A DNA stretch of 21,026 nt from an uncultured Thermococci archaeon (GTDB taxonomy: Archaea > Methanobacteriota_B > Thermococci > Thermococcales > Thermococcaceae). The stretch lies in NCBI GenBank assembly GCA_964615185.1, contig CAZTOS010000039.1, positions 1 to 21,026 on the forward strand, given 5' to 3'. Position 1 is the stretch's first letter. Each line of letters begins with the position of its first letter. The notes beneath the pieces were generated by a model. That model ran no database searches and had not been told where the DNA came from. It was given only the letters and a program-made list of their open reading frames with translations. Made by a program: the position numbers and the translations under genes. Of this stretch, positions 1-19,857 are shown in pieces.

Positions 1-1850
1 AGACTTCAGAAAGCTCACAATCAATTAATGCGGAGGTTTATAAGAGCTGGCTCCACAATTCCACAGAATATTTTGAAATCTACTATCCAGAAGAGGTTTA
101 CAAAAATCCAATATTACAATCAAAGCTCAATATGCTCCTTCTCGGTGCAGACAGCACATATGAAAGCTATTCCAAGCTTTTTGGAGGCAAACCACATAAA
201 GCAAAGATATATCTATATCCATCAAAAGACAGCTTGAAAAGCATCACAGGGAAAAATACGCTCTGGTTCGTAGATTACCAGAGAAGAGAAATTCACATTG
301 CATTGATAGAAGAAAGCGGCATGTACTCCTCGTTTGAAATTGTTTCAGCGCTTTTGGAATTTGCGGCAGGTGAAAAGCTTCCAGATGTACTCGTCATTGG
401 GTTTGGAGTGCTGAACTTCAGAATACCAAGGAACCCTCAAGAAAGCTACGTGAGCATAGAGCAACTGAAGTCCTTAGACCTAAGAAAAGAATACAATGAA
501 ACCTTGTATGCTGAAGCTGGGGACTTGCTAAGGTACATTGCAGATACTTATGGCCCACAAGCTCTCATAAACACATTAAAGAATGGAAACATTCCAACTG
601 TCAATGAAAAGGATTTCCTTGAATTTTTGGAGACTGAAGATCACGAAACAAGCAACATAGAAAAAACGACAATAACTCTGAACATAAGCATGGAGCAGAA
701 AAAGTTTGAGGGAGCTGTAATTTACAGCAACGTTACCTCACAGCCGTACATCTATTTCAGAAGAACACCAAGGATTGACATCAAAGAGATTAAAGTGAAC
801 GGCGAAAATGTTGACTTCATTCAGAGCTTTACAGTGGTCATTCCAGCAAAGAACTTCAAAAAAGGAAGCATAGAAATTAAATACAGTGGGGACTACTCAA
901 AAATTGAGAAAATAGCACCCAAAAGAGGATACATAGAGGGACAAATTAAGGAAGATATTGCATTTTTAAGGGGCACATTTCTGCGTCCCATGCTGAACTC
1001 CGTTGAGCTGTTTAACGTCATCGAAGTTAGAGCCAAAACTGACAAGGGAACAGTTATAGCTCCAGGCGAACTGATTTCTTCCAATGTCTGGAGAATTTCA
1101 TTTCCTCAAGGATTCAGCGGTGTGATTCCAGTTTTTGCTGGAGAATTCAAGAAAATAGAGCTGATGAACGGTTACTTAACGGTGTATTACATGGATATTG
1201 ATGAGGAAACCGCAGAGAGATACGCCAACCTTACCGCAGAGATTCTGGAGTTCGGAGTGAAATATTTTGGAAAGCCGGGATATGGGAAAGTTAAAGTTGT
1301 TTACCCCAAAGGAATAAGTATCTCGAGTCTAATGCTTGATACTCTGGCATATTCTCACAATCCCGTACGATACAAATATGGCTACGCATACGAGATAGCA
1401 CATTGGTGGGTTCCTGGGACAGTTACATTTGACACAAACATGAGCCAGTTCTGGTTCAATCTGGCTTTCCCATGGTACTACTCTTTAAAATACGCCCAGA
1501 ACATTTCACAGGAAAGTTATCGTGAGCTAAGGAACTATGGGATTTCAAAATATCATAAAGCAACAAGGTATGGAGAAAAAGATGTTCCGTTAACGGAAGT
1601 ATGGAAAGTATGGGGAAGGGATATCAACCTTTATTATGCCGTTGGTGCATATAAAGGAGCCTCGGTTCTTGAGAAGCTTGAAGAGTATGCAGGCAAAGAG
1701 GCATTTTTCCAATCTCTCAGAGAGTTCTTTGAAAAATACAGATTTAGGGAAGGAGATTTAAACGATTTTGTGGCAATATTAGAAAAGAACTCTGGAAAAT
1801 CAGTTAAAGAGCTTTTCCAGAATTTAACAACGAGCACAGGATTGCCTTAG
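1..1850 (+). CDS. M1/gluzincin-fold protein, 5'-partial, with two degenerate peptidase domains (probable pseudo-peptidase)
   Basis: The frame is open from nt 3 (TSESSQSINAEVYKSWLHNSTEYFEIYYPE...) into the ATG at 132, so the true start lies left of the window. The C-terminal domain has M1-like motifs YEIAHWW, WFNLAF, YKGASVLEKL and FFQSLREFF. The N-terminal part has a peptidase-MA-like pattern (FEIVSALL...LPDVLVIG...YAEAGDLLRYIADTYG). Confidence 0.8.
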   Translation, partial: TSESSQSINAEVYKSWLHNSTEYFEIYYPEEVYKNPILQSKLNMLLLGADSTYESYSKLFGGKPHKAKIYLYPSKDSLKSITGKNTLWFVDYQRREIHIALIEESGMYSSFEIVSALLEFAAGEKLPDVLVIGFGVLNFRIPRNPQESYVSIEQLKSLDLRKEYNETLYAEAGDLLRYIADTYGPQALINTLKNGNIPTVNEKDFLEFLETEDHETSNIEKTTITLNISMEQKKFEGAVIYSNVTSQPYIYFRRTPRIDIKEIKVNGENVDFIQSFTVVIPAKNFKKGSIEIKYSGDYSKIEKIAPKRGYIEGQIKEDIAFLRGTFLRPMLNSVELFNVIEVRAKTDKGTVIAPGELISSNVWRISFPQGFSGVIPVFAGEFKKIELMNGYLTVYYMDIDEETAERYANLTAEILEFGVKYFGKPGYGKVKVVYPKGISISSLMLDTLAYSHNPVRYKYGYAYEIAHWWVPGTVTFDTNMSQFWFNLAFPWYYSLKYAQNISQESYRELRNYGISKYHKATRYGEKDVPLTEVWKVWGRDINLYYAVGAYKGASVLEKLEEYAGKEAFFQSLREFFEKYRFREGDLNDFVAILEKNSGKSVKELFQNLTTSTGLP

Positions 1851-2912
1851 CTATCTGAGTTTTAACCCCTCTGTTAGTCCTTTTTCAACTTTCTTCCCAA
1901 CTTTTGAGTTAACATAAGAATCTAATGAGCACACATGAGCGAATACGTCTTCGAGGGTTACTGTCTCGTTTTGAATGTCGATGACGTCATAATTTGTTAG
2001 GATTGCGAGGATATCCTTCAGATGATCTTGTTTAATGTAGATTTCCAAGTACGTGAAACCGTTTTGAGTATAAACTTTAATCTTCTCTGTTATCCCGGTA
2101 AAGTCATCAACTTCAACTTTGCCCTTGAGTTTGACCAACAGCTTCCTATCTATTTTTAAGGCTTGGAACTTTTCGACTAATTCTTTCGGCTTGCCTTCAG
2201 CGATTTTCTTCTTGTTAAAAATTAGAACTCTATCACATAACACTTCAGCCTCATTCAAATTATGTGTAGTTAGTATTATTGTTGTTCTAAATTCTTTAGA
2301 GAGTTCTAAAATGGCATTCCAGACTTCTCTTCTTGTAAAAACGTCTAAGTAAACTGTTGGCTCATCTAAAATTAAAGCTTCAGGCTGAATTATTAGCGGC
2401 AGTGCAAGATAAACTTTCTGCCTCATGCCTGCAGAAAGCTTTTGATACCATTCATTCCTCTTGTCCTTGAGATTCAAAAGCTCCAAAGCATAGTTAATCC
2501 TCTTTTCAGCTTCAACTTTAGAAATCCCCCAGAGCTCTGCAATAAATTTCAAGTTCTTCTCCACGCTTACACGCCATTGAAAAAGTCCAAACAAATCCCT
2601 CTCCCCACCAAAAATCGTGAATATTCTGCCCTTGATTTTATCATGCTCCCTCACTGAATCATAACCATTGATGTAAAGATTACCCCGAGTCGGAATTACT
2701 AATGCATTGGCAATCTTGCAGAAGGTTGTCTTTCCAGCACCATTAGGACCCAGAAGACCGAAAATCTCACCCTCTTTAACCTTGAAATTCAAATCAATCA
2801 AGGCTGGAATTTCTTCTCTAGGTTTCCCAAGAAAATCTCTCAAACTTTTCAGGTCAAAGAGCGATTTTATTGGTGAGGGATAAAACTTAGTCAAGTTAAC
2901 TGACTCAATCAT
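1851..2912 (-). CDS. ABC transporter ATP-binding protein (ABC-2/DrrA-like exporter)
   Basis: Walker A GPNGAGKT, signature LSAGMRQ, Walker B LILDEPT, H-loop TTH, and a C-terminal ACT-like extension ending TLEDVF. Confidence 0.95.
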   Translation of the reverse strand: MIESVNLTKFYPSPIKSLFDLKSLRDFLGKPREEIPALIDLNFKVKEGEIFGLLGPNGAGKTTFCKIANALVIPTRGNLYINGYDSVREHDKIKGRIFTIFGGERDLFGLFQWRVSVEKNLKFIAELWGISKVEAEKRINYALELLNLKDKRNEWYQKLSAGMRQKVYLALPLIIQPEALILDEPTVYLDVFTRREVWNAILELSKEFRTTIILTTHNLNEAEVLCDRVLIFNKKKIAEGKPKELVEKFQALKIDRKLLVKLKGKVEVDDFTGITEKIKVYTQNGFTYLEIYIKQDHLKDILAILTNYDVIDIQNETVTLEDVFAHVCSLDSYVNSKVGKKVEKGLTEGLKLR

Positions 2913-3087
2913 ATGTATTCCCTGTCATTAATTGATGAAATTACTTATAAATATTGCTGTTGTTTTTCTTTATTAATGGTTTCACTTTATTTATAAATAA
3001 GTTTCATAGATTTATAAATCAGTTGCAGTAAAACTTATTTATCGTTTCATCGAAAATGTGAATGCAAAAACTTAGGGGGTGTTGTGA
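2913..3087. promoter_or_regulatory. Divergent promoter region (ABC ATPase / precursor operon)
   Basis: Very AT-rich. TATA-like cores ACTTATAAAT (2943-2952) and ATTTATAAAT (2989-2998, 3010-3019). BRE/TATA-like AAACTTATTTAT at 3031-3042 (+) with its inverse at 2993-3004. G-rich RBS AGGGGGT at ~3074-3080. Confidence 0.65.
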
Positions 3088-3276
3088 ATGAAGATTGAGA
3101 TATTGAAAGTGGAAAATGGGAAGATTGTTGAGCCAGAGGACATGGTTGCTTGTGTTATGGGAGGATGTGGTGGAGGGTATGGTGATTGTATAGGGTATGG
3201 AAACTGCCCAACCGTAGGGGATAGGTGTGATAGACCCGAAGGAATACCATGTGCTTTTGGCCTTGTTGATCCATGA
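3088..3276 (+). CDS. Putative RiPP precursor peptide (62 aa, Cys/Gly-rich core)
   Basis: Preceded by an RBS. Charged leader MKIEILKVENGKIVEPEDMVA, then a core with Cys22/27/34/40/47/55 and tandem GYGDC-I-GYGNC. First gene upstream of several RRE-rSAM/SPASM genes. Confidence 0.85.
   Translation: MKIEILKVENGKIVEPEDMVACVMGGCGGGYGDCIGYGNCPTVGDRCDRPEGIPCAFGLVDP
3175..3210 (+). repeat. Degenerate 18-nt tandem unit in precursor core (GYGDCI / GYGNCP)
   Basis: gggtatggtgattgtata | gggtatggaaactgccca. Confidence 0.6.
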
Positions 3277-3288
3277 GTAATGTCTGTA

Positions 3289-3310
3289 AATTTCTTTATT
3301 TCTCTTTTCT
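3289..3310 (+). terminator. Possible oligo-T (partial) terminator after the precursor gene
   Basis: Pyrimidine run tttctttatttctcttttct shortly after the stop, typical of archaeal intrinsic terminators. Confidence 0.45.
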
Positions 3311-3331
3311 ACAAGGGGGGTCGTAACTAAA

Positions 3332-4771
3332 ATGGACAAAACAACTTATCGAGTAAATCCATATTTATTGTTCACGAAATTACAGGATAATATGTACTTA
3401 GTAGTAAATGTTTTAGACAAAACATGTATTAAATGCGATAAAGAGCTTTTTGATGTTTTAAGAAATAGAGATGTGTCTAAAATACCAGAAGACATACAGA
3501 GAGTACTTTACGAAAATAAGATTTTAATTCCAAAAAACATAGGTGATATCGAGTATTTAGAGTCGAAGATTTACAGAAACTCCAACAATAACAATAAAAT
3601 TACTAACAATGTGATCTTAACTAAGTTTGAATTCATCGTGACATGGCAATGTAATTTTTCATGTTCTTACTGTTTTGAAAATAAAGACAAAACTTCTTTG
3701 TGGGGTGGCCTAACTACAAAGCATGTGGATAAAGCTTTTGAATTTATTGACCAATACAGCACTCATAATTTCCCCCTACATATTGGACTAATGGGTGGTG
3801 AGCCATTATTACCCAGTTATAAACAAGTGGTATCCAAAATTTTTAAGAACGTTCAAGAGAGGAATGGAAAAATTACAATTATAACTAACGGATCCACAAT
3901 AGATAAATATCTTGATCTAATTAGCAAATATAATGATTACATAGAGAGGATACAAGTGACATTAGATGGTACAAGAGATGTACACGACAAAAGAAGGCCC
4001 TTTAAAGGGGGAATTGGGAGTTTTGATAAAATAGTTTCAAACATAGACAGTCTCTTAAGAATTGGATTTAAAAAAGTGAGAATTGTAATGAATGTAGATC
4101 ACGAAAATTTAGATGACGTACCCAATTTTATTCAATTCTTAGAGCAGAAAGGATGGCTAGGGAACTTCAATATTCTAATAACAACAGTAGAAAGTTATGG
4201 AAACATTAGAGCTGAAAAATTCAACCATTATAAAACAAGTAGAGAGCGTATAATAAAAAAACTATTTGAATATTTTTATGAGCATCCAGAATTGTTAAGA
4301 TACATTCATGTGGATGATAACCGAGGAAGTATGAGAGTACTTTATTCACTGATAATAGAAGGAAAAATTCCTAATCCAACATTGTATCATTGTGCGGGAA
4401 TAGCTGGGATTGGAGGCAGTTTTTCTCCGGATGGCAAGGTATATCCATGTGCTGCATTTGCAGAGGGACAATTATATCCTATTGGAGAATACTACCCCAA
4501 ACAGAAATTATACGCAAAGCAGTTATCTGCCTTAAGGAAGCGTAATACTCTAAACCTTAGAAAATGTTACAGTTGTAATCTTTTGCCTATTTGTGCAGGG
4601 GGATGCCCCATTATGGGCCTAAGTTATGAAGAATATCAGAGGCTTAAAATAGGGAAGTGCAATCTCCTAGAATGTACCACATGTTTAGGCAAAGAGATCA
4701 TACTGGAGGAAGGAGTTTTATATTATAACTTCAAACAGAAGTTAAAAGAAGAGAGGAGGATACAGGAATGA
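3332..4771 (+). CDS. Radical SAM/SPASM peptide maturase 1 with N-terminal RRE-like domain
   Basis: CNFSCSYC (CX3CX2C), GGEP, TNG, VTLDG...HD. SPASM C-x13-G-x4-C (HCAG...GKVYPC) and CYSC-x5-C-x3-C...C. About 90-aa winged-helix-like N-terminus. Confidence 0.93.
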   Translation: MDKTTYRVNPYLLFTKLQDNMYLVVNVLDKTCIKCDKELFDVLRNRDVSKIPEDIQRVLYENKILIPKNIGDIEYLESKIYRNSNNNNKITNNVILTKFEFIVTWQCNFSCSYCFENKDKTSLWGGLTTKHVDKAFEFIDQYSTHNFPLHIGLMGGEPLLPSYKQVVSKIFKNVQERNGKITIITNGSTIDKYLDLISKYNDYIERIQVTLDGTRDVHDKRRPFKGGIGSFDKIVSNIDSLLRIGFKKVRIVMNVDHENLDDVPNFIQFLEQKGWLGNFNILITTVESYGNIRAEKFNHYKTSRERIIKKLFEYFYEHPELLRYIHVDDNRGSMRVLYSLIIEGKIPNPTLYHCAGIAGIGGSFSPDGKVYPCAAFAEGQLYPIGEYYPKQKLYAKQLSALRKRNTLNLRKCYSCNLLPICAGGCPIMGLSYEEYQRLKIGKCNLLECTTCLGKEIILEEGVLYYNFKQKLKEERRIQE

Positions 4772-6411
4772 GAAATATTTTACTCAGAGTGATGGTTATT
4801 TACTTAGTAATTTTCTCTTTGCCAACAGCCACATCACTTGGGAACACCCAAAACTTCCCAAAAGTGATTGTTAAGATAAACCCCAACCTTGAATTGTTTG
4901 CTGTGGTGTATATTCTGACATTTAATGGCAGTGATGATTTTATAATTGCTCCTCAAAGCTATGTTGATGACGTTTTGACGTACTTTGCCCCCTACAAGGA
5001 TCATGTAGCAGTGAAGTCGATGCAACAAATGTTTCCCAAAGACCTGCCTAATTATATCAAAGATGAAAACTTATGGAAATGGGCAAGCAGTTTAGCAGTT
5101 AGAGAATACCTAGAAGATCAAGAAGACTTATCTGGTTTCTATGCTGAGCTTTCAGATTTTGCCAGGGAGAGTAACTTCATGAAGTTCTATAATGCCCATA
5201 AGGGTGAATATGAAAAAGCACTTATCTCAATTCAGAATGTTTTTAAAGAGTGGGACTTTATTAAAGAGCTTGAGAATCGTTCTGGAAAGAAATACGCTGA
5301 GTATCGAGTCGAGCTTTCATATTCCCTTTTCATTCACCTCCACTCACGCCACATACTAACCAAAGCTTACATGATTGGATCTATACCGAGGAGTTATTTA
5401 GACAATCTGCGTTACACTGGCTTGCCAAACATTCAAGCAATCAAAGACTATATGTTTAGGGCTTTCTTCATCCACGAGTTTGCTCATGCATTTTTGGATT
5501 CTGATAGGCTTGGCATGTCATCAGAGTACCGCTTCATCTATCAAAAAGTTTTAGAAGAGCTTCCTTTTACGGCATATAATCTGGATTTTTCCACAAGTGG
5601 GGCATATCTAAACGAAAACTTGGTTGAGGCTTTTACCCATTATTATCTTGCAGAACACTACAACTCTACCATCGCAGAGTATCTCATTCTGAAAGATGCA
5701 ACTATCGGCTATGTTCTTGTTGAGGATTTGGCTAAAGCATTTCAAGAAAACATTTCATTCAGTCAGATACCGGAAGTTGTGGGAAAGCTGGTAACGAAAG
5801 ACAACCTAAGCAGATACTTTAATTCAAGAATGCCCGTAAATGGGTTTTGGGCAGTAAATAGAATTTACAAAGATAAGAGGGTCATCATAGTTTACGGGAC
5901 GCAGAATCCGGATGAGAGGGGAAATGAATATGATAAGGAGTCTGCACTAATGCTTGCTAATTGGTTGAGAAGTGCGGGGATATCGGTTGAAGTTAAGGGT
6001 GATAACGAACTCACAAATGAAGACCTTCAGAGCAATTTAGTAGTAATTGGAGGGCCTGGAGCAAATGAATTAACTAAGAACCTAACCAAAGAACTTGTGG
6101 TGAAATTTTCTTTTAACGGCGACTGGAAGCTTGTAAGAAACTTCACGGCTGTTGAAAATCCAATTTCGTTCATCTTTTCAAACGAAAGTATTAAGGTGGT
6201 TAAATCAGATGCCGTAGTTCCTCAAGAATATCCATTAGGAGTCGTTCAAACCTTAAGAAACCCATGGAACAACGAGAAGTTCATAATCGTGATTGCCGGC
6301 ATTGATAGGTACTGCACAAGAAAAATGCTCCGCTACTTTAACTACAACAGTAGTTATCTAATCAGAGGGAAAACGTTCTTCGAGGAGGGATTTTATATTC
6401 AAAGAATCTAA
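4768..6411 (+). CDS. Secreted HEXXH metallopeptidase-like protein (DUF4932-like) with C-terminal S-layer-type domain
   Basis: N-terminal hydrophobic signal, NPNLELFAVV, IHEFAH (His codon 5473) with downstream NENLVEA, and C-terminal NLVVIGGPGAN...RNPWN...IAGIDR. Start overlaps the previous stop (ATGA). Confidence 0.75.
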   Translation: MRNILLRVMVIYLVIFSLPTATSLGNTQNFPKVIVKINPNLELFAVVYILTFNGSDDFIIAPQSYVDDVLTYFAPYKDHVAVKSMQQMFPKDLPNYIKDENLWKWASSLAVREYLEDQEDLSGFYAELSDFARESNFMKFYNAHKGEYEKALISIQNVFKEWDFIKELENRSGKKYAEYRVELSYSLFIHLHSRHILTKAYMIGSIPRSYLDNLRYTGLPNIQAIKDYMFRAFFIHEFAHAFLDSDRLGMSSEYRFIYQKVLEELPFTAYNLDFSTSGAYLNENLVEAFTHYYLAEHYNSTIAEYLILKDATIGYVLVEDLAKAFQENISFSQIPEVVGKLVTKDNLSRYFNSRMPVNGFWAVNRIYKDKRVIIVYGTQNPDERGNEYDKESALMLANWLRSAGISVEVKGDNELTNEDLQSNLVVIGGPGANELTKNLTKELVVKFSFNGDWKLVRNFTAVENPISFIFSNESIKVVKSDAVVPQEYPLGVVQTLRNPWNNEKFIIVIAGIDRYCTRKMLRYFNYNSSYLIRGKTFFEEGFYIQRI

Positions 6412-6424
6412 GAGGTGACTCACT

Positions 6425-7726
6425 ATGAGACTCTCTTCTCTTGTGAATATCGTCCAACTAAATGAAACAGACTACCTTATCTTAAAACCTAACTCTCGAT
6501 CTTTAATAGTTGACAGAGAAGTTATTGAAGCAATTAGGAATTTAAATAATACTCCAAAAGAAGTGGTAGAAGTTCTTACAAAAGAGGGATTTATTACAAA
6601 CTTAAAGCCGGAAGAAGAAATTGCATTATTTTACAGTTTTTTAGAGCAAAATGAAGCTCGAATAAAGGGTAAATACAGTATCGCAATAACGTACAACTGC
6701 AACTTTGCTTGTACTTACTGTTATGAAAGAGGTATAAATAAAGAGGACACAATTAGCAGAGAAATGATTGATAAATTTTATGAAATCGCTGTAAATGATA
6801 AAGATAAGATACGGGAAAGCATTGGAATTACGGGTGGAGAACCTTTAATGTATGAAAATGCTGAAATTTTAGAATATCTTCTAAGAGAGGGTAAGAAAAA
6901 AGGATTTGCTTTCGATATCATAACCAATGGTTATGAGCTGATTGAATTCTTAGACATGCTAAAGAAAAACAATGTAAAAATTGTAAAAGTAACGTTGGAT
7001 GGCCCCAAAGAAATTCACGATAAAAGGAGAATTCACAGGAAAGATAGGGAGACATATGATAAAATTTTGGAGGGAATTAAAGAAGCTCAAGATAAAGGAA
7101 TTAAGGTAACAATCTTCGTAAATGTTGATGCTCAAAACCTCAACTATACTCCCAAACTCATTAATGAACTTAAAGAAAATGAAATAGACGCCACAATTTT
7201 ATTAAAAAGGGTTAATGAACGCTCAGGAGCAAAATATCCCTATACTTTAACTTCAAAAGAGTACTTTGAGAGAGTGTTCAAAATAATAAGGGAATACAAA
7301 CTAAAAGAAGTCAAGGTTTATGAATTCGATATATTTTATGCAAACCTTTTCAATGCTCTCTCATCAGGAACTCCAATTCCCGCAAGGTTAAGATACTGCG
7401 GAGGAGTTACCCCTGGTGTTTTGATATTTGATCCAAGAGGCGACATTTATACCTGTGATTACGTTCTGGGAGATAAAAGGTTCAGCGTTGGCACTTATTA
7501 CCCAGAGTTTAAATTGAACATAAACTATTACCTCTGGAAGAATAGAACAGCAAGCAAGATAAAGGAATGCTTTAACTGCAGGCTATCTCTTTTGTGCTCT
7601 GGTGGATGTCCTATGGAAGCATATAGAGCCCATGGAACATTATATAAGCCGTACTGTGAAGAAACTAAGTACTTGTTTGAGTATATAAAACTCTGGCTCT
7701 CTCTAAGGAGGGAGGATAGTGATTAG
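6425..7726 (+). CDS. Radical SAM/SPASM peptide maturase 2 with N-terminal RRE-like domain
   Basis: RBS GAGGTGA, CNFACTYC, GGEP, TNG, VTLDG...HD, and SPASM YCGG...GDIYTC, CFNC-x5-C-x3-C...YC. Confidence 0.93.
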   Translation: MRLSSLVNIVQLNETDYLILKPNSRSLIVDREVIEAIRNLNNTPKEVVEVLTKEGFITNLKPEEEIALFYSFLEQNEARIKGKYSIAITYNCNFACTYCYERGINKEDTISREMIDKFYEIAVNDKDKIRESIGITGGEPLMYENAEILEYLLREGKKKGFAFDIITNGYELIEFLDMLKKNNVKIVKVTLDGPKEIHDKRRIHRKDRETYDKILEGIKEAQDKGIKVTIFVNVDAQNLNYTPKLINELKENEIDATILLKRVNERSGAKYPYTLTSKEYFERVFKIIREYKLKEVKVYEFDIFYANLFNALSSGTPIPARLRYCGGVTPGVLIFDPRGDIYTCDYVLGDKRFSVGTYYPEFKLNINYYLWKNRTASKIKECFNCRLSLLCSGGCPMEAYRAHGTLYKPYCEETKYLFEYIKLWLSLRREDSD

Positions 7727-9055
7727 CCCTTTTGTTGTCAAAATAAAACTCTGCAATAGTCAATATCTGCTGATAAACACCAAAAACGGATCAATGATAA
7801 AAGTTGACAGTGAAGCATTAAATGAACTTGAGAAGGAGAACCCCGAATTGGACAACAACATTTTATCCATTCTAAGGCAGTCTGGTTTCATAATCGATAA
7901 ACCTGATAATAAAGAGGTCAGAAAATATTTTAATTGGCTTTGGGATAATATTTACTCAAACAATTATCACATCATTGTTGTAACATACACTTGCAACCTT
8001 AATTGTTCCTACTGTTACCAAAGAAACATAAAAAGGGAGAAAGACTTAACAAAAGAGCAAGTGGATAAAATCTTTGAGGCTATTTTAAAGTTTGATAATG
8101 GGGAAGTTGACAATAGAAAAAGCAAAATCCGAAATATCCAGCTTTATGGTGGAGAACCTCTTCAAAAAAGACTCTATAAAATAATTGAGTACATTCTTGA
8201 AATTGGCTCATCATATGGATATAAATTCATAATTATGACAAATGCCATTGACTTGGATTATTATGTACCTCTTCTTGAGTCTTATAGGGATTCAATAGCT
8301 TTGCTACAAACCACAATTGACGGTCCGGAGGAAGTTCATGACTCATATCGATATAATGGGGCATTTGAGAAAACGATTTCAAACATTGAAAAAATTATCG
8401 AGGTGGGATTTAGAGTTGATTTGAGAACTAACGTTGGCAAAGAAAATGCTAAGTATCTAGAAGAACTTGCAAGATTTTATATTGAGAAAGGGTGGACAAA
8501 TAAAGAAAATGTTCGGTTTTATTTAGCTCCGGTTAGGGACAAATTTGGCCCTTGCTATTTTAACCCGGATCTATCCTACGATGAAATCCTAAATTTATTT
8601 AGAAGTGAATTAATAACCAAGGTTTTTGGAATATTTAATGGTCTCTTTGTCAAGTTCTATGAAGGAATCTGGATTCCACAGTTCTATAATTGTCCAGCTC
8701 ATTACCGACAGATATTCTACGATCCTTATGGTGATTTATATGCATGCATGAGTGCTTTGAGAATGAAAGAGCTTAGCATTGGAAATACTATCCAGTGCTT
8801 GAACTAAATGAGAACTTTCATTTGTACAGAAAACGGAGCATCTTTAACATAGAAAAATGCAAAAACTGTGAATTTGCTCTGCTCTGTGGAGGAGGATGTA
8901 GCTACAATGCATTTCTAAAAACTGGCAATTTAGCCAATCCAGACTGTTATAGCATGAAAATATTAAAAGAGAGATTTTTCCAACTATTTAAATACCCAGA
9001 AGTTCTTGAATATTATTTTAAGAGGAAACAAAAGGGGGATGAGTATGAACCATGA
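7719..9055 (+). pseudogene. Radical SAM/SPASM peptide maturase 3, split by a 1-nt frameshift at ~8783-8785 (true pseudogene or sequencing error)
   Basis: ORF 7719..8807 has CNLNCSYC, GGEP and the first half of SPASM (NCPAH...GDLYAC). ORF 8795..9055 has CKNC-x5-C-x3-C...DC. Adding one A to GGAAATAC gives SIGKYYPVLELN, matching paralog IGEYYP / VGTYYP. Confidence 0.88.
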
Positions 9056-9446
9056 TAGCTAATCTTAAAAAGTGTACCCATGTTGGGAGATGATTGGAAT
9101 CGAAGATTACCAAATTGGAGAGATACAGAAAGATGGAACAATGAAAATTACCCCATTTTATTATGATGTAAAATCTAGGGATCCTACAGAATATGAAGAG
9201 TGTAAGAATTGCAAACTTTTGCCAGTTTGCATGGGAGGATGTCCAATGGAATCAATTCGAAAAAACGGACATCCTAATGGTCCGGGATGCGACATAAATA
9301 AATATGTTTGGAAAGAAGGGTTAAAATTTTATTTAATGAGAAAGTATTCCAACCTATTTAGCAAGGAGAGTCTAATGAAAAATTTGGGTCGAATCCCAGA
9401 TAAAAACGAACAAGTGTGGAACTTCACACTTTCAACAAGAGAATAA
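9052..9446 (+). pseudogene. SPASM-only remnant of a fourth radical SAM maturase
   Basis: The frame from 9069 reads KVYPCWEM...CKNCKLLPVCMGGCP...GC, i.e. it begins mid-SPASM (cf. GKVYPC in maturase 1). There is no CX3CX2C, and in-frame TAA stops lie at 9060 and 9066. Confidence 0.75.
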
Positions 9447-9493
9447 TAGGCATTAAAAACAACGAAAACAACTGTACACCGAGGTGTTGGATA

Positions 9494-11266
9494 ATGGAGA
9501 GGAAAGTATTTGCTATATTCTTAATCTCTTTTCTTGTGCTTTCTATGGGATATGTTTTATGGGGCAATAAATCAGTTCCATCATCACTAAAACAAGAGAA
9601 ATTGAAACTTTACATTGAATATCCTTCAAGGGTTGAAGAAAAAATTATACATGGAGCTTTTCCTCATTTTCTGACGAATTATTCTGTTATTGCAAACATA
9701 ACTGTTATTACCCTCAATCACCACCTAAAGGTAAGCTGGAATTTTGTAATTAAGGATAGAACTGGAAACAGCACTATACTTTACATAAAGTCTCCAAGTT
9801 TTGGTAAATTAAGCCTGACGCTTGAAGGAAAACAAGTCAACATATCAAAGCTCTCTCGATATTCATTACCTCAGTATTACGCTCAAGTAATACTTTTGAA
9901 TGTAACATATCCAAAGGATATTCCAATACATGGAGCACTGGAGTATGAGACAACAGTGAATTCTTCGTTCACCCAATATATACTCGGTGATTTTGTGAAA
10001 TTTTCCCCAATTTATTATCCCGAAACATATCCTTCCATAATGGTTTTTTCAACTGAGTGGCTTCTTCCGATATCACCTGCAGGAATACTTGTTAACTCAA
10101 ATTCCCTCTATAATCCAATTCCAAAAGTGTATAATCTCACTCTCATTCTTCCTTCAACCTATACCGTACTCTCCGACTATTATCTACCCAAAATAGAACA
10201 CAAAGATAAAAAATTAGTAGTAACATTCAGAAATGTTAAGCTCAATCCCACGAATTACCGGTTCATTTACATTTACAACCATGACCTTTTTCAAAAAACC
10301 GAAATTACTATTAGGAATGCCAAATTAATAGTTTACACTCCAAAGAAAAGTTATTTGGACTTCCAAGAACTCACAAATATCACAGCACAAATAGTCTGGC
10401 ACTATATAAAACGCTTAAGCATGCTTCCTTATCAGGAAATTCATGTATTCTTTAATCCAGATATTATATTTGGAGAAGAATTTGAATACTTTGAGAATGG
10501 AATTGTAGTAGTTGGACTTCGGACACATTATGGATTTTTGGAAAATGAGGGCATTTTACCAACAATTGCTCATGAGCTTGCCCATTTGTGGTTTGGGAGT
10601 TATGCCCATCTTGGTCGACTCGATGAGAGCCTTACCACCTTCATGGAATTTGATGTGGATAAGCTTACTGGTGAAAGCTTGAAAGAAAGAGAAAAACAGG
10701 CAGTAAGGGACTCCAAGCGTTATAAGAGAACGTTGGCTCAAGTTTACCAAGAGGGAATACCTGACCCACAAATAAGACTTGGTGTTGAATATTATAAGGG
10801 TGCTTTTGTCTTCCGCTCTCTTCAGTTTGTTCTTGGCAATGAGACTTTCTTCAAGGGCTTAAGGGAGCTTTTAAGAGAATGCCATAATAAAGAGTGTAAT
10901 TTAACGGATGTTCAAAATGTTTTTGAAGAAGTTAGTGGACAAGATTTAGATTGGTTCTTCAAAGAGTGGTTTTACACTACTAAGGTTCCTGATTACGAGG
11001 TTGGAAACTTGAATTTAGTTCAAAAAAGTGGAAGATATTCCCTGACCTTTGAAATTATTGACAAAAACAACTTCACAATGCCCCTCGAAATTGAGGTAAT
11101 AACATCAAAAGAAAAACTCGTTAAGAAAGTTTGGATTAAAGGGAAAGCAAAGATAAGTTTTGAATTAAATGATAAACCAATAAAGATAACCCTCGATCCA
11201 AACGAATGGATAGTGAACGAAAACAAAAAATATAACATTGAGAGAATAGAGATAATAATTGAGTAA
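9494..11266 (+). CDS. Membrane-anchored/secreted M1-family (gluzincin) aminopeptidase
   Basis: Start moved to ATG 9494 (RBS GAGGTG at 9481). N-terminal TM/signal VFAIFLISFLVLSMGYVLW, HELAH (10571) with third ligand Glu in LDES, catalytic Tyr in YYKGAFVF, C-terminal LDPNEW beta domain. Confidence 0.88.
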   Translation: MERKVFAIFLISFLVLSMGYVLWGNKSVPSSLKQEKLKLYIEYPSRVEEKIIHGAFPHFLTNYSVIANITVITLNHHLKVSWNFVIKDRTGNSTILYIKSPSFGKLSLTLEGKQVNISKLSRYSLPQYYAQVILLNVTYPKDIPIHGALEYETTVNSSFTQYILGDFVKFSPIYYPETYPSIMVFSTEWLLPISPAGILVNSNSLYNPIPKVYNLTLILPSTYTVLSDYYLPKIEHKDKKLVVTFRNVKLNPTNYRFIYIYNHDLFQKTEITIRNAKLIVYTPKKSYLDFQELTNITAQIVWHYIKRLSMLPYQEIHVFFNPDIIFGEEFEYFENGIVVVGLRTHYGFLENEGILPTIAHELAHLWFGSYAHLGRLDESLTTFMEFDVDKLTGESLKEREKQAVRDSKRYKRTLAQVYQEGIPDPQIRLGVEYYKGAFVFRSLQFVLGNETFFKGLRELLRECHNKECNLTDVQNVFEEVSGQDLDWFFKEWFYTTKVPDYEVGNLNLVQKSGRYSLTFEIIDKNNFTMPLEIEVITSKEKLVKKVWIKGKAKISFELNDKPIKITLDPNEWIVNENKKYNIERIEIIIE

Positions 11267-11361
11267 TAAGACTCCGTCCTTTTAACCTTCGCTTTTTATT
11301 AATACTATATCAACAATATTAATAAATTCAAAGAAGATCCTGATAACTTTGTAGTAATGTT

Positions 11362-13866
11362 CTAACCCCCTCTTAACTTTCTCCCCTCCTCAAGCTCTCT
11401 CCTCAAAGTTCTTGCTTCGAACTCCGCTTTCTTTGCCCTAAACACCTTTGCAATTCTCTCAACTGCTTCAAGCTTCCTGATTATGCCGTCAAGCCACGTA
11501 AAGACGTCTCCGGGATAAAGAATTAGGCCATACATCTTTCTAAAATACTCGCTTATCTGAGTTGGATGCCTCCCTTCTCTTCTCAGCTCCATGATGCGGT
11601 CGCTTATTCTGTGCATCGCATACTCAGTGCACTCCTTTTCTTCACACATAAAGAAATCCTGATAAATCGTGAAGAGCCTCTCTTGAGCATTTGGACTAAG
11701 CTCTGGGATAACCCTATCGAGTTCCTCTAAAATCGAAGCAAAGCTTGGGGAAAAAATGTTAGCGCTCAGCCTTCCTCTAACTGCTCCTTCCAGCTCCCTC
11801 TGCAGAGTTCCGCTGAGATAAACATTTTCAAAAGGCGAAAGTTTGATTGCAATCTCCCTCGGACTCTTCTTTGCGAGGTTCTCTCTTATGAACTGAGCCT
11901 CATTTGGCAGTAAGAAGCTCATGCTGACAGCTCTTCCATAAGGTGTAACATTCACGAGCTTGCCCCTGAGTTTAACAAAATCATACTCTTCAAGCTTCTC
12001 CAAAACCCTTTCAGCACTTTGATTCGCTCCCAAACATCTGCTCTGGACTTCTTCTATATCATCCAGATATGAGAACACACATGCATGAGCCAAAACTTGG
12101 TCTTGCTCCAGCTCATCGCTCCACTCAAGGTAAACGGGTTCAATAGGTGCTGTTAACAGCTTAAATGCAACTTCATCTTCACTTTGCTCCATTTGAGCTG
12201 AGTATTTCTTCCCAGGCTCAATTATGAGGTAAACCTTTCCCTTCTCATGATAGAGAGGCCTCCCAGCTCTTCCAAGCATCTGGTGAAACTCTCTAACACT
12301 CAGCCACTTATTGCCCATTGCCAGGCTTTCAAAGATTACTTGTGAAGCTGGAAAATCAACCCCAGCTCCTAAAGCAGCTGTAGTTACAACAACATCAAGC
12401 ATCTGAGCTTGAAACTCCATCTCTGTGAGTTTCCTTTGATGATACGGCAATCCACTGTGATAGGGCTTTGCCTTCAATCCTCTGCTTGTTAAAAACGCAG
12501 CCAGCTCATGGCATCTCTTCCTTGAAAAGGTGAAAACTATAGTCTGACCTTTATAGCCTTGCTTCGATTTTCTCATAACCTCAGCTTTAGCCAGCTGAGC
12601 TATGTAATGCCATTTTTCACTTTCATTTCTTGCTAAAATGACGTGCCTCTCTAAGGCCACTGGTCTTTCATCATAGACAACCAACCTAAGCCCAAGCTCC
12701 TTTGCAAGCTCTTCGGGATTCCCAATTGTAGCACTCAGTCCAATGAACTGAGCTTTTGGATAGAGTCTCCTCAATCTTGCTATTAAACCATCCAATCTTG
12801 CTCCTCTCTCCTCGTCATCAATCATGTGGATCTCATCAATGACAATAGTCCCAACTTTTCCAATTTTTCTACCAGCTCTCAATAGATAATCAACTCCTTC
12901 ATAAGTTCCCACAATTATGTCGGCATCAATTCCCGTATCCACAACGACGAGCTCGTCTTTAGTCTTAATTCTGCTCATACCAACCCTTATGGCGACTCTT
13001 AAGCCAAGCTTAGAATATCTCCTCTTGAAATCCTCATATTTTTGATTTGCCAAAGCCACAAGGGGAACTAAAAAGAGCATCTTCTCTCCTTTTATTGCCT
13101 TAGGAACTCCAGCCAATTCTCCTATGAGGGTTTTCCCACTTGCTGTTGCTGAAACGATGAGAAGATTTTCCCCTTTTAACAAACCATGCTGAATAGCTAA
13201 GCTCTGAACTGGTAAAAGCTCCCTCACGCCCTCACTCCTTAACACATCTTTGAGCTCTTTCGGAATTTCAACCTCGTCAATGCTTAGTTTTTTGACTTTA
13301 ATCTTCTTTGGCTTAAGCTCATCCCATTTTGTAACTTCGGGATTTTTAGTTGGGTCAAATCTTGGGTCAAAAACCATTAGAACTTTATCCAAGTCTCTAA
13401 ATCGCTGTAAAAGCTTCTTTGCTTGGTCAAACATTCCTAAACTCCTAAACCTGTATCGAAGCTCATTTTTAAGCTCTTCCTCCGCACATTTCTCACATAT
13501 GTACTCGCTATGGAATTTTATTCTATTTCCTTCAGTTAAGACCGTTATCTTCCCATTGAGGAGACAAAAACGGCAGAGGTGAGCTTTTTCGACCCTCTTA
13601 TTTTGAAGCCTTACTTTAAAATATTCCTCCCACTCATCTGTATCTACCAAAACAATTCTCGCCTGCCTCAAAACCTTCTCAATCTCTTTGGGATTCCTAT
13701 ACTGGCTACCTTCAAGAACCTTAAACAAACGGTTGTCTCTCATAATTAGCCGGTAAATCCTATCAGCTTTTAGATTCTGCATCTGAGAAAGCTTTTCAGG
13801 TTCTTTTTCAACGTAATAAGCTTCGAGTTCATCCTTTTTTCTGCCTTTTTTGATTATAAAAAGCAT
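11362..13866 (-). CDS. Archaeal Ski2-like SF2 DExH helicase (ASH-Ski2 / DUF5814 type)
   Basis: ATASGKT, DEIH, SAT, QMLGRAGR; N-terminal CRFC...CEKC metal motif and C-terminal Cys pair. Start placed at ATG 13866 behind AGGTGA. Confidence 0.9.
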   Translation of the reverse strand: MLFIIKKGRKKDELEAYYVEKEPEKLSQMQNLKADRIYRLIMRDNRLFKVLEGSQYRNPKEIEKVLRQARIVLVDTDEWEEYFKVRLQNKRVEKAHLCRFCLLNGKITVLTEGNRIKFHSEYICEKCAEEELKNELRYRFRSLGMFDQAKKLLQRFRDLDKVLMVFDPRFDPTKNPEVTKWDELKPKKIKVKKLSIDEVEIPKELKDVLRSEGVRELLPVQSLAIQHGLLKGENLLIVSATASGKTLIGELAGVPKAIKGEKMLFLVPLVALANQKYEDFKRRYSKLGLRVAIRVGMSRIKTKDELVVVDTGIDADIIVGTYEGVDYLLRAGRKIGKVGTIVIDEIHMIDDEERGARLDGLIARLRRLYPKAQFIGLSATIGNPEELAKELGLRLVVYDERPVALERHVILARNESEKWHYIAQLAKAEVMRKSKQGYKGQTIVFTFSRKRCHELAAFLTSRGLKAKPYHSGLPYHQRKLTEMEFQAQMLDVVVTTAALGAGVDFPASQVIFESLAMGNKWLSVREFHQMLGRAGRPLYHEKGKVYLIIEPGKKYSAQMEQSEDEVAFKLLTAPIEPVYLEWSDELEQDQVLAHACVFSYLDDIEEVQSRCLGANQSAERVLEKLEEYDFVKLRGKLVNVTPYGRAVSMSFLLPNEAQFIRENLAKKSPREIAIKLSPFENVYLSGTLQRELEGAVRGRLSANIFSPSFASILEELDRVIPELSPNAQERLFTIYQDFFMCEEKECTEYAMHRISDRIMELRREGRHPTQISEYFRKMYGLILYPGDVFTWLDGIIRKLEAVERIAKVFRAKKAEFEARTLRRELEEGRKLRGG

Positions 13867-13880
13867 CAAAATCACCTTAG

Positions 13881-14378
13881 CTATCTTCTTCGCCTTCTTG
13901 CTTTCCTCTCCTGCATCATTACACCACTTTCCTTGAAGGTATCCATGATAACTGAAACCTTTGCCCTTTTCATATTCTTCCCAAGATATTTTACAGAGAG
14001 ATTTTTCACGAACTCTTTAAGCTGGGAGATATCTTTAAAGTTTGCCCGTATTAAAATCTGAAACTCCCCTGTTTTCCTGTAAACTCCGATAACGTTGTCA
14101 AACTGGCTTATGCTGTACAGCATTTTGTCCACGGTTTCATTATCAACAAGAAGCTCAACCTCAATTATTGCCTGAACAAACTCATTTAGAAAAGTTGGAT
14201 CAACTATTGCCGAATACCCCCGGATAGCCCCCAAGCTTTCCAGCTTTTCAATTCTGTTTTTTATACTTGCTGGTGAAAGACCTATTTTTCTGCCCAACTC
14301 TGTTAAAGTAGCCCTGCCATTCTTTCTGAGCTCTTTGAGAATTTCCTCGTCTTTTTCGTCAATGCCCACCATTTTCAC
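13881..14378 (-). CDS. Lrp/AsnC family transcriptional regulator
   Basis: IDEKDEEILKELRKNGRATLTELGRKIGLS...RIEKLESLGAIRGYSAIVD HTH, then TGEFQILIR RAM domain. Confidence 0.93.
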   Translation of the reverse strand: MKMVGIDEKDEEILKELRKNGRATLTELGRKIGLSPASIKNRIEKLESLGAIRGYSAIVDPTFLNEFVQAIIEVELLVDNETVDKMLYSISQFDNVIGVYRKTGEFQILIRANFKDISQLKEFVKNLSVKYLGKNMKRAKVSVIMDTFKESGVMMQERKARRRRR

Positions 14379-14407
14379 TCAAAGGAAAATAGTAAAGAGA
14401 AAGGTTA

Positions 14408-15085
14408 TTATTTTTTCGCTATTTTAATTGGTGCACCAAAAGCCCTATCTCCAGCATCTCCAAGTCCCGGAAGAATGTAACCGTGATCATTCAGTTCTCT
14501 ATCAATCTTTGCTACAAAGATTTCAACTTCTGGGTATGTTGCCTTAATTTTGCTTATTCCTTCCGGTGCTGCCAAAACTCCAAGAACTATGATCCTCTTT
14601 GGGGTTCCATACTTCCTAACTTCCTCAATGACCTTTAGCAATGTTGAGCCAGTCGCAATCATTGGGTCTGCAATTATTACGGTGTCTTCAGGCTTAATTT
14701 CTGGAATCTTAATGTAGTTCATTTCTATCTCAAACTTTGGCGCTTTGCCTCTTGATGCAGAAACTATACCAACCCTTGCATGCTCAAGAACTTTTATCAA
14801 GCCCTCCATCAATGGAATTGCTGCTCTGAGAACTGTAACAATCACTACGTTCTTCCTGTCTTTAACAACTATGCCCTCTGTCTTCTCTAACGGTGTTTCA
14901 ATTTCAACTTTTTCAACGTCCATTGTTTTTGTTAGCTCATAACCCATATATCTGCCAAGCTTTACTAAGCCCTTTCTGAACTCTATTGCACCCGTATTCT
15001 TATCTCTGAGCCCTGTAAGAATCTCCATCAAAAATGGTGAGTCTTCAAAGGAATAAACACCTTCCCATCTCTCATCAGCTATCAT
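14408..15085 (-). CDS. upp: Uracil phosphoribosyltransferase
   Basis: LRDKNT...FRK, VLRAA, PRPP loop [24 protein letters not shown]. Confidence 0.97.
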
Positions 15086-15146
15086 TAAAAGCCCGCCCTG
15101 AGTTTAGAAAGAGCCATTTAAAAATGTTGCGGAAGGGAAGAAAATG

Positions 15147-15518
15147 TTAATCTCCCCTCTCCTCCGGAGGAACACTCTTCTCAGTTACAGGTATTATACA
15201 AAGGAACTCAAAGGTCTCCGAATCTGGATTCTCATATCCGTGGGGTTCATTTGGAGGTATATATAGAAAGCTGCCCGGAACAGCTTTTACCGTCTTTCTA
15301 CCGTTTGTTATGTAACCTTCGCCTTTGACTACAAATATTTCATGTTCCCATGGATGCTGATGTGTGGGGATTTTCCCTCCTTTCCTAATAACAAAATATC
15401 TCATCGCAAAATTCTTTGCCCCAACTTTTGGGGAAACAAGCCATCTTATTGTTGTTTTCTCAACCCCTTCTATTGTAACTTCCTTTTCTTCAACATCAAG
15501 ATAATGCCCAACAAACAT
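15147..15518 (-). CDS. Cupin domain protein (123 aa)
   Basis: HQHPWEHEIFVVKGEG...IPPNEPHGYEN metal-binding cupin motifs. Start moved to ATG 15518 behind GGGTGA, which removes the overlap with the divergent gene. Confidence 0.9.
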   Translation of the reverse strand: MFVGHYLDVEEKEVTIEGVEKTTIRWLVSPKVGAKNFAMRYFVIRKGGKIPTHQHPWEHEIFVVKGEGYITNGRKTVKAVPGSFLYIPPNEPHGYENPDSETFEFLCIIPVTEKSVPPEERGD

Positions 15519-15576
15519 TTCTGTCACCCAAAGGTCTTTAAGTTTTGAACTACTTAAGGGTTTTTTGGTGAAAAAC

Positions 15577-17241: not shown

Positions 17242-17313
17242 CCCTTCTTCTGTTCTTTTATTAACGAAAAGTTCTTAAAGTTATAAATGGAAGAGAGATA
17301 TGAGGTGATTAAA

Positions 17314-17460
17314 ATGCAACCTCCCAAGAAAAAGAAGATTGAGGAGATAGAAGAGGAAGAGTTCTTTGAGGAGGAAGAGTTTGAGGAATGGGAGGAAGAC
17401 TGGGAAGAAGAGTGGGAGGAAGAGGACTGGGAAGAAGAGTGGGAAGAAGAGGAGTGGTGA
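17314..17460 (+). CDS. Small basic-head/acidic-aromatic-tail protein (48 aa), absent from ORF track
   Basis: TTATAAAT at 17281, RBS GAGGTGA at 17302. Translation MQPPKKKKIEEIEEEEFFEEEEFEEWEEDWEEEWEEEDWEEEWEEEEW. T-rich run directly after the stop. Confidence 0.85.
   Translation: MQPPKKKKIEEIEEEEFFEEEEFEEWEEDWEEEWEEEDWEEEWEEEEW
17398..17451 (+). repeat. 27-nt tandem duplication (DWEEEWEEE x2)
   Basis: gactgggaagaagagtgggaggaagag | gactgggaagaagagtgggaagaagag, one mismatch. Confidence 0.8.
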
Positions 17461-17462
17461 GC

Positions 17463-17474
17463 TTTTTATTTTTT
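17463..17474 (+). terminator. Oligo-T terminator
   Basis: tttttatttttt immediately after the TGA at 17460. Confidence 0.55.
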
Positions 17475-17573
17475 ACGCCTTTCTATATAGTCTATATAGT
17501 TACCTGTGTTTAGCTATATTCTATTTTGGCAAACTATTTATATCCTTCAGATAACGGTTCTCTGGTGATAATA

Positions 17574-18785: not shown

Positions 18786-18786
18786 A

Positions 18787-19461: not shown

Positions 19462-19473
19462 AGAAAGAAAGCC

Positions 19474-19701: not shown

Positions 19702-19857
19702 GTCTACCACCAAATTATAGTTTGTTTCTGGGATATTTAAGACTATCGGAAGGTGAATACAGATTTATGGATTAGGTTAACAAACTCTTTGAAAACTTAA
19801 TCCTAAGTCTAAAAATATATTTCAAAGCCGAAGTTATTATAATAACTGGGAAGCATC

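Follow-up and report, generated by a model that had tools for sequence, protein, structure and literature searches.

A probable family of leader-guided, radical-SAM-modified cysteine-rich peptide clusters in Thermococcaceae

The stretch of DNA analysed here, hereafter referred to as the window, is the entire 21,026-nt contig C39 (CAZTOS010000039.1) of GCA_964615185.1, an assembly of 138 contigs with 95.6% completeness from an uncultured archaeon of the family Thermococcaceae. Its positions 1-11266 carry a short cysteine-rich open reading frame (ORF), three radical S-adenosylmethionine (rSAM)/SPASM genes and an ORF with SPASM alone, together with genes for two HEXXH proteins, for a degenerate M1-like protein and, divergently oriented, for an ATP-binding cassette (ABC) ATPase. 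We consider it likely that this locus is a member of a small Thermococcaceae family of clusters for leader-guided, radical-SAM-modified, Cys-rich peptides, belonging to the peptides that are made ribosomally and then modified post-translationally (RiPPs). This reading is carried by the computed gene content, the precursor family, the fold of the maturase, the exchange of cassettes and the purifying selection on the genes. The family is real, rare and uncharacterised, and belongs with the rSAM/SPASM thioether-peptide kind. New here are a peptide core and a maturase that are swapped as one cassette, and the conservation of the SPASM-only ORF.

Domain calls were taken from Pfam and NCBIfam. Together with the ORFs they confirmed the gene set of a multi-rSAM/SPASM RiPP-type locus that a preliminary description of this DNA had proposed for a Thermococcales-type archaeon. 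The features are as follows.

3-1850, plus strand: M1-like pseudo-peptidase, truncated at its 5' end where the contig begins; Pfam Peptidase_M1 (4e-14); YEIAH
1851-2912, minus strand: DrrA-type ABC ATPase; Pfam ABC_tran (5.8e-24); TIGR01188 drrA (2.4e-65, below cutoff)
2913-3087, no strand assigned: conserved divergent promoter region; three TATA-like boxes and GTTTCA repeats
3088-3276, plus strand: precursor pre1; 62 aa, 6 Cys, leader MKIEILKVENGKIVEPE
3332-4771, plus strand: rSAM1; predicted RiPP recognition element (RRE)-like N-terminal domain, radical-SAM domain, SPASM
4768-6411, plus strand: DUF4932 protein; HEFAH; C-terminal S-layer-type anchoring domain
6425-7726, plus strand: rSAM2; radical-SAM/SPASM
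7719-9055, plus strand: rSAM3; split into ORFs 7719-8807 and 8795-9055
9072-9446, plus strand: stand-alone SPASM ORF (mini-SPASM); 124 aa; TIGR04085 (1.4e-14)
9494-11266, plus strand: M1-like zinc peptidase; HELAH and downstream Glu; Pfam Peptidase_M1 (9.2e-16); ORF opens at GTG 9416

The plus-strand genes from pre1 to the HELAH M1-like gene are tightly packed. The ATPase gene is divergent from pre1, and the pseudo-peptidase gene is convergent with the ATPase gene. The gene overlaps described earlier at 4768 (ATGA) and 7719 (8 nt) are both genuine: a GGAGG-type ribosome-binding site precedes the former, and the GTG start at the latter is preceded by GGAGGGAGG, again a GGAGG-type site. A third coupling, by ATGA at 9052, stood only in part. 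The ATGA exists, but its ATG opens a frame of only 13 codons, and the SPASM ORF lies in another frame from GTG 9072.

Precursor family and maturases

The pre1 ORF is preceded by a GGGGGTG ribosome-binding site and TATA-like boxes; its six Cys residues are located at 22, 27, 34, 40, 47 and 55, and its core is Gly/Cys/Asp-rich. A search of 5.8 billion proteins yielded six homologues of 48-61 aa, giving with the window copy a family of seven (48-62 aa) with 22 invariant columns. The leader is invariant and the Cys tail hypervariable: every member starts with MKIEILKVENG followed by K/N-I-V/I-E/D-P-E/D, and a conserved C-x-M-x-G-C-G-G-G stretch after the leader gives way to a fully divergent Cys-containing tail. 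In the window core, the last five Cys each have D, N or E at +4 to +6, a pattern not seen in the other family members. Because six homologues share the same leader and the dN/dS ratio (omega) of the leader codons is 0.10 (window versus the related genome G103), the short ORF is considered to be beyond chance. The invariant leader and hypervariable Cys core of the seven members support its earlier assignment as the precursor.

Among 97 Thermococcaceae species genomes, pre1 was detected at E <= 1.3e-7 in four, G000 (the assembly holding the window), G020, G103 and G107; five weaker matches (E 0.027-0.063) were taken as chance. It is located directly upstream of an rSAM1-type gene in five of six distinct locus types (window/L038, L039, G103, G020/L041/L037 and L042), the exception being G076. 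Upstream of rSAM4-type genes in G007, G020, G021 and G024 stand other Cys-rich peptides, and one such peptide precedes a different rSAM gene in G032. Short Cys-rich ORFs thus stand directly upstream of the rSAM genes of relatives, the co-occurrence on which the preliminary description had made its reading depend. The case of G032 (G032:C116; L027/L013) is a 54-aa, 8-Cys ORF at 1146-1310, upstream of an rSAM/SPASM gene 29% identical to rSAM1; it represents another family of the same class.

The rSAM1, rSAM2 and rSAM3 proteins all carry the CX3CX2C motif and SPASM cysteines, and match Pfam Radical_SAM (7.6e-18 to 5e-23). In an alignment of 47 rSAM1 sequences, C107, C111 and C114 were invariant, as were C354, C373 and C425 of SPASM, while C412, C415, C421 and C451 were nearly invariant. 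TIGR04085 matches the tail of rSAM3 as well as the mini-SPASM ORF. The best NCBIfam matches of the three enzymes are Cys-peptide maturase families, CefB, TIGR04463, PapB and Clo7bot. By sequence comparison with the PDB, the best match of rSAM2 was CteB (2.7e-25) and the next was the anaerobic sulfatase-maturating enzyme (anSME); omega for rSAM2 was 0.14.

An AlphaFold2 (AF2) model of rSAM1, based on the 47-row alignment, gave a predicted score in the local distance difference test (pLDDT) of 91.3 and a predicted template modelling (pTM) score of 0.90. Its N-terminal domain, ahead of the TIM-barrel part, is of beta-beta-beta-alpha-alpha type, a three-stranded sheet with helices. Foldseek with this model placed CteB (5wgg) at the top over the full length (497 columns, E = 7e-19), followed by anSME, TigE, SuiB, ChlB and SkfB. 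The predicted complex of rSAM1 with pre1 gave an ipSAE score of 0.75 (0.76, 0.75 and 0.75 in the runs), compared with 0.01 for the best of three controls (0.00-0.01); of 157 solved complexes 116 attained that mark, and of 215 mismatched pairs 2 did so. Contacts agreed between runs to at least 31%, the pLDDT of the partner was at least 42, and the confident predicted contacts were between leader residues 1-15 of pre1 and residues 30-62 of rSAM1. These models support the view that the maturases are CteB-like enzymes with a predicted RRE-like N-terminal domain, in line with the RRE-rSAM/SPASM layout given in the preliminary description. Its estimate of up to four maturases is lowered to a maximum of three, since the fourth ORF lacks a radical-SAM domain.

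Exchange of the core together with rSAM1

The metagenome contig L039 shows the gene order of the window, with an intact rSAM3 and a 124-aa SPASM ORF. DNA identity between the window and L039 was distributed as follows (window positions).

2936-3176, promoter and leader to the GCGGG codons: 89.9%
3177-4863, core and rSAM1: no similarity except one 68% patch
4864-11533, DUF4932 onwards: 96.1%

In the comparison with G103 and L042, conserved DNA resumes exactly at the start of rSAM2 (6424/6425). Protein identity between loci was as follows.

rSAM1: 35-45%, all 10 pairs of five loci
DUF4932: 36-85%
rSAM2: 75-97%
rSAM3: 87-99%
SPASM ORF: 86-99%

These sequence comparisons indicate that the core and rSAM1 form a swapped cassette, inserted between a conserved promoter/leader and a conserved rSAM2-rSAM3 module. 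A search with rSAM1 gave 281 representatives at E <= 1e-30; among the matches listed, 11 were at E <= 3.8e-59, with 32-43% identity. At least ten sequence types of rSAM1 were recognized, the window and nine 50%-identity clusters at E <= 5e-68, of which five were inspected together with their cores. Named members of ten clusters among those 11 matches belong to Thermococcus, a Thermococcales metagenome-assembled genome (MAG) and, as the most distant, a Theionarchaea MAG, and are annotated solely as radical SAM or hypothetical proteins. Orthologues of rSAM2 were present in 6 of the 97 Thermococcaceae genomes. Contigs of the samples X1 and X2 agree with the window from position 4885 on and differ upstream; the 30-nt loose end at this position matches none of 47 loci, and these communities may thus contain a further cassette variant.

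The genome G103 keeps the same order with all genes intact, that is, pre1, rSAM1, DUF4932, rSAM2, rSAM3 (431 aa), a 136-aa SPASM ORF and M1-like, and its divergent operon encodes an ABC-2 permease, a MarR/TrmB-like helix-turn-helix (HTH) protein and the ATPase. G020 carries the pre1 cassette and, adjoining it, a second cassette, in which a peptide of 75 aa and 13 Cys is followed by a full-length rSAM4 (472 aa) and M1-like. This second cassette type, consisting of a 62-75-aa peptide with 9-13 Cys, the 472-aa rSAM4 and M1-like behind the same conserved promoter, was located at L025 5977-9417 (G007), L026 5030-8537 (G024) and L024 11867-15378 (G020), and also on L017 (G021). In G007, which belongs to the genus of the window, it is the only type, at the same place by the helicase gene and with the full ABC operon. 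In G024 it lies beside an ATPase gene without permease, and the ATPase-promoter junction is as in the window. The rSAM4 proteins of G024 and G020, genomes of different genera, are identical at 465 of 472 residues, which points to recent transfer.

The divergent promoter of about 180 nt showed 80% mean column identity among eight cassettes, five of the pre1 type and three of the pre2 type, and is present in G000 as a single region with no further copies. It is more conserved than the adjacent coding DNA, and contains three TTTATAAA-like boxes and repeated GTTTCA. These boxes and repeats could possibly be the sites of the HTH regulator of the cluster. On L024 (G020:C1:108000-127500), genes for a YcaO cyclodehydratase (PF02624, 1.2e-53) and a nitroreductase-family protein (4.2e-30) adjoin the rSAM cassettes at 17523-19411 on the minus strand, and this region of G020 may be a wider RiPP island.

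Stand-alone SPASM ORF, putative surface peptidases and proposed pathway

The 124-aa SPASM ORF derives from a gene of the rSAM4 type and corresponds to residues 347-466 of G020 rSAM4, starting at the second SPASM Cys. The junction upstream of this ORF is common to the window, L039 and G103, and a single ancestral truncation is therefore likely. The ORF had been taken for a relic; instead, it is conserved under purifying selection. In this ORF the window and G103 differ at 59 nucleotides, with 38.0 synonymous changes over 70.3 sites and 21.0 non-synonymous changes over 301.7 sites, and omega is 0.07 (Fisher p = 4e-18). When 59 changes were placed at random in 20,000 trials, the frame stayed open in 3.4%, and identical residues never exceeded 93 versus the 107 observed. 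Gene conversion was rejected as the source of this conservation, since a full-length rSAM4 that could serve as donor was not found in G000 or G103. The protein collection held only three stand-alone homologues, one of them named 'SPASM domain-containing protein' by its source. This pattern of substitution argues that the fragment is kept by selection as a separate small protein, and prompts one to ask whether an auxiliary-cluster domain is able to function alone.

The DUF4932 protein matches PF16286 with 60.1 bits (cutoff 28.7) and also S_layer_C. Residues H236, E237, H240, E283 and E287, constituting HEXXH and two Glu, were invariant in six sequences. By Foldseek, its C-terminal domain matches 9fsa, the anchoring domain of the Methanococcus voltae S-layer protein (TMt 0.66); matches of the model to BcsB had a TM near 0.2 and were not interpreted. 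In bacterial clusters, DUF4932 is called a 'putative metalloprotease' in the available text of PMC5410138, the one paper found that refers to it. Hydrophobic N-termini were found on the DUF4932 protein and the M1-like protein, and none on the rSAMs, pre1 and the ATPase. Both proteins are accordingly predicted to be extracytoplasmic, the DUF4932 protein as secreted and the M1-like protein as either membrane-anchored or secreted.

The HELAH M1-like protein (9494-11266) probably starts at ATG 9494, the point at which similarity to its homologue sets in. It contains HELAH...LDES, that is, HEXXH and the downstream Glu ligand. Its Pfam Peptidase_M1 match covers profile positions 67-218 only, and omega was 0.15-0.2. 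The M1 exopeptidase motif is GXMEN; no GXMEN was found upstream of HELAH, and a conserved GEEFE is in its place. Alignment of the 3-1850 protein to this paralogue confirmed that YEIAH replaces HEXXH (H to Y) and that the third zinc ligand Glu is also lost, so that it is a pseudo-peptidase, as described before. Its orthologues have YEVAH in G007 and YEIAH in G020, and L038 has, at 2389-4389, a full copy of 666 aa whose hydrophobic N-terminal segment ends in FGC.

From these observations we infer the following pathway. The 62-aa precursor would be made in the cytoplasm, where its invariant leader MKIEILKVENGKIVEPE would bind to the rSAM/SPASM enzymes by adding a strand to their RRE-like N-terminal domain. 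The enzymes would then link core cysteines intramolecularly, most likely as ranthionine- or sactionine-type thioethers, between which sequence cannot discriminate; in these classes the sulfur of Cys is joined to the beta/gamma or to the alpha carbon, respectively, of an acceptor residue. Because rSAM1 is exchanged together with the variable core, it would be the core-specific enzyme for the variable tail; the conserved rSAM2 and rSAM3 would probably act on the constant C-x-M-x-G-C stretch, possibly on Cys22 and Cys27. An ABC system such as relatives possess would carry the product out of the cell, and the surface-exposed zinc peptidases, DUF4932 and M1-like, would remove the leader after export.

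A wider proposal, which we regard as rather doubtful, is a plug-and-play RiPP system of hyperthermophiles. Into a constant set of promoter, leader, two rSAM/SPASM enzymes and an iron-sulfur SPASM mini-protein, variable cassettes of a core and its dedicated rSAM1 would be recombined, so that enzyme co-varies with substrate, in place of a single promiscuous enzyme for many cores. The mini-protein, retained by selection although its radical-SAM domain was lost, may act in trans. If true, such a system would provide strain-specific cross-link topologies for competition or recognition among Thermococcales. With thermostable maturases, an invariant leader of 17 residues and several core/enzyme pairs provided by nature, the pre1 family allows a direct test of the co-evolution of substrate and maturase specificity. 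Since two carriers are named in the sources as cultured Thermococcus species, tests of expression and activity are feasible.

Among known systems, SCIFF, with its six-Cys-in-45 precursor, employs one maturase, whereas the present locus counts three, besides its stand-alone SPASM ORF and a pair of surface peptidases. The SCIFF enzyme CteB (PDB 5WGG, 5WHY) is alike in its radical-SAM domain, SPASM with two auxiliary clusters and Cys-rich precursor and, by the prediction for rSAM1, in its RRE-like N-terminal domain, but shares only 16-18% identity with rSAM1 in structural alignment. Ranthipeptides of the PapB/freyrasin type and CefB 'Cys-every-fifth' peptides resemble pre1 in Cys-rich cores with regular Cys spacing. 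The D/N/E residues after Cys in the window recall the Cys-to-Asp links of the PapB/freyrasin type; the spacing is, however, not CX3D, and other pre1 members lack the pattern. In the bacterial sactipeptide cluster of thuricin CD, two rSAM enzymes, TrnC and TrnD, reportedly pair with two precursors beside an ABC transporter and a protease. It is thus alike in having more than one rSAM/SPASM maturase beside its precursors; here one precursor is accompanied by three paralogous enzymes, one of which is swapped with the core.

Archaeal rSAM-modified peptides are widely predicted, and the available part of a 2025 survey describes them as predicted but uncharacterised. In the literature searched, CrpC of a methanogen (2026) was the only biochemical case found, with none from Thermococcales. 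As far as the available text goes, CrpC/CrpA of M. voltae (TIGR04463) installs ranthionine cross-links, and the authors connect it with pyrite growth instead of killing (PMC13692751). It is alike in being an archaeal rSAM/SPASM enzyme with an RRE, for rSAM1 a predicted one, beside a Cys-rich substrate with a conserved N-terminal region, and TIGR04463 is among the top matches of all three rSAMs; CrpA is, however, a large repeat protein, whereas pre1 proteins are 48-62 aa. The main text of that paper, as available, does not contain the word 'peptidase', and has 'transporter' once, in a general remark of the introduction (PMC13692751). Subtilosin-like sboA/albA/albC loci are predicted, and uncharacterised, in Thermococcus celer and T. 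nautili (preprint 10.64898/2026.07.27.741052, available text). They share with this locus a predicted rSAM thioether peptide, occurrence in Thermococcales and an ABC component, but are bacterial-type, with a single rSAM, and in the authors' view probably acquired horizontally (10.64898/2026.07.27.741052). As far as they are described there, the pre1 family is set apart by a distinct leader, by the presence of three rSAMs and by other accessory genes. No publication on this cluster was found in the Thermococcales, archaeal or hyperthermophile radical-SAM RiPP literature, of which the supplements of the closest papers may list such clusters.

Condition of this copy and rival explanations

In the window, an A run at about 8779-8782 is one A short, which breaks rSAM3 and splits it after the first SPASM cysteines and ahead of the CX2CX5CX3C block. 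The gene is intact in L038, L039 and G103. L038 is 99.966% identical to the window over 8909 bases with one gap, and its rSAM3 frame is intact. In Logan contigs of X4, the extra A behind 8782 is present at a depth of 30.2 of 30.2. Of the three complete or restorable rSAM genes described earlier, rSAM1 and rSAM2 are intact, and rSAM3 is frameshifted in this assembly by the 1-nt deletion. Upstream of the position corresponding to the window start, L038 109-2392 carries a DDE transposase fragment and then a 633-aa ORF in which a tail like that of rSAM1 is joined to a second DUF4932 gene, the remnant of another cassette.

The ATPase of the window is 91% identical to that of G103 (omega 0.08), and both G007 and G103 have a complete permease-HTH-ATPase operon. 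The closest G000 match to the ABC-2 permease of the G007/G103 type showed 24% identity (E = 1.2e-7), and only distant ABC-2 proteins were present. Across rSAM2, rSAM3, mini-SPASM, M1 and the ATPase, omega was 0.06-0.2. The island undergoes rearrangement and decay, while its genes keep these low values.

The reading of the locus as a leader-guided RiPP cluster has to be weighed against a number of observations. The frameshift of the assembly, without the extra A, also appears in the Logan contigs of X3 (depth 3.1) and of X1, which may be the source sample. As X4 carries the A and X1 and X3 do not, both alleles of rSAM3 seem to exist, and an assembly error as sole cause of the frameshift is unsupported. 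The window lacks the ABC-2 permease and HTH genes, and no orthologue of either was found elsewhere in G000 (95.6% complete); export by an ABC system, as first proposed, is therefore not secured for this strain. With rSAM3 frameshifted and both permease and regulator missing, the pathway in this strain is probably impaired. The window and L039 have a stop in the ancestral ATG region of the SPASM ORF, for which GTG 9072 or ATG 9090 are possible starts, and the status of this ORF in the strain is uncertain. In G020, both rSAM2 and rSAM3 are broken. G076 has rSAM1-DUF4932-rSAM2-rSAM3 without an adjacent precursor, and no pre1 was found in its genome. No RNA run was listed as holding the locus among 14 runs, and contigs alone are silent on expression.

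Points of this kind also concern the enzymes. NCBIfam scores of the three rSAMs were 148.4, 128.7 and 86.9 for NF038107 CefB (cutoff 600), 122.6, 127.2 and 63.4 for NF047865 PapB (cutoff 340), 138.6, 136.8 and 108.7 for TIGR04463 (cutoff 525), and 88-102 for the SCIFF maturase family TIGR03974 (cutoff 425); being far below every curated cutoff, the rSAMs are members of none of these families, and no specific chemistry carries over from them. A Pfam scan of the three rSAM N-termini gave no PqqD/RRE match at E <= 10. As RRE-leader complexes have already been solved, the passing ipSAE score shows likeness to them and not proof of binding, and the fold of the partner itself is uncertain in the complex model. 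For the DUF4932 protein, the AF2 model (6-row alignment) had a pLDDT of 66 overall and below 50 across the HEXXH region, leaving the protease fold unconfirmed, and no solved relative was found by sequence at E <= 1.

Part of this evidence would fit a decaying remnant, once functional, of which the copy in this genome yields no mature exported product and is heading for loss. We rate this as a real possibility, somewhat short of an even chance. The deletion in rSAM3, the missing permease and HTH gene, the disrupted start region of mini-SPASM and the broken rSAM2 and rSAM3 of G020 are all in its favour, together with the truncated second cassette and DDE transposase fragment just upstream in near-identical L038 and the patchy spread of pre1 (4/97 genomes) and rSAM2 orthologues (6/97). 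However, the genes for the precursor, rSAM1, DUF4932, rSAM2, M1 and the ATPase are all intact in the window, omega is low throughout, and an rSAM3-intact allele exists in L038 (99.97% identical). The recurrence of the ATPase-promoter junction in G024 further argues against a one-off deletion.

Two other explanations accept the genes as functional but differ in the role of product or substrate. The product might be not antagonistic but a metal-, iron-sulfur- or redox-related peptide, or a self-signal, in which case the surface peptidases would serve nutrition, immunity or another role; we think this unlikely. It would agree with the Gly/Cys/Asp-rich core, with the conservation of one M1-like paralogue that is catalytically dead, and with the pyrite growth tied to CrpC/CrpA, the only characterised archaeal relative family in the text available (PMC13692751). 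The exchange of core plus enzyme, with at least ten rSAM1 sequence types, would rather suggest diversifying pressure as at competition or recognition loci, and the DrrA-type ABC system and regulator of relatives fit export or self-protection. It is very improbable that the short ORF is not the substrate and that, in the manner of anaerobic sulfatase-maturating enzymes, the rSAM/SPASM enzymes mature the secreted proteins encoded nearby or some other target. Although anSME is the second-best structural and sequence match and G076 keeps its enzymes without an adjacent precursor, the leader is invariant and the core variable, the core is swapped together with rSAM1, and the leader docks on the N-terminal domain in the model with controls at 0.00-0.01. 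Moreover, rSAM enzymes are active in the cytoplasm, and for the peptidases export is predicted. A protein-sized substrate is described for CrpC in the available text (PMC13692751), and is a further point for such a target.

Several minor observations were made on the surroundings of the island. In G076 (L048, G076:C132:8000-23000), the rSAM1-DUF4932-rSAM2-rSAM3 genes are located at 4618-10376 without pre1, SPASM ORF and M1-like, and a different ABC pair precedes them. A DUF5814 helicase gene at 11362-13875 on the minus strand flanks the island in the window; it is whole in the window and G007, and split into three ORFs in G020 (L024 61-2575). The rest of the window consists of housekeeping genes, and the region 13881-20508 encodes an Lrp/AsnC regulator, uracil phosphoribosyltransferase, a cupin, a metallophosphoesterase, a PHO4 phosphate transporter with a PhoU-like gene, and a small AsnC-type ligand-binding protein.

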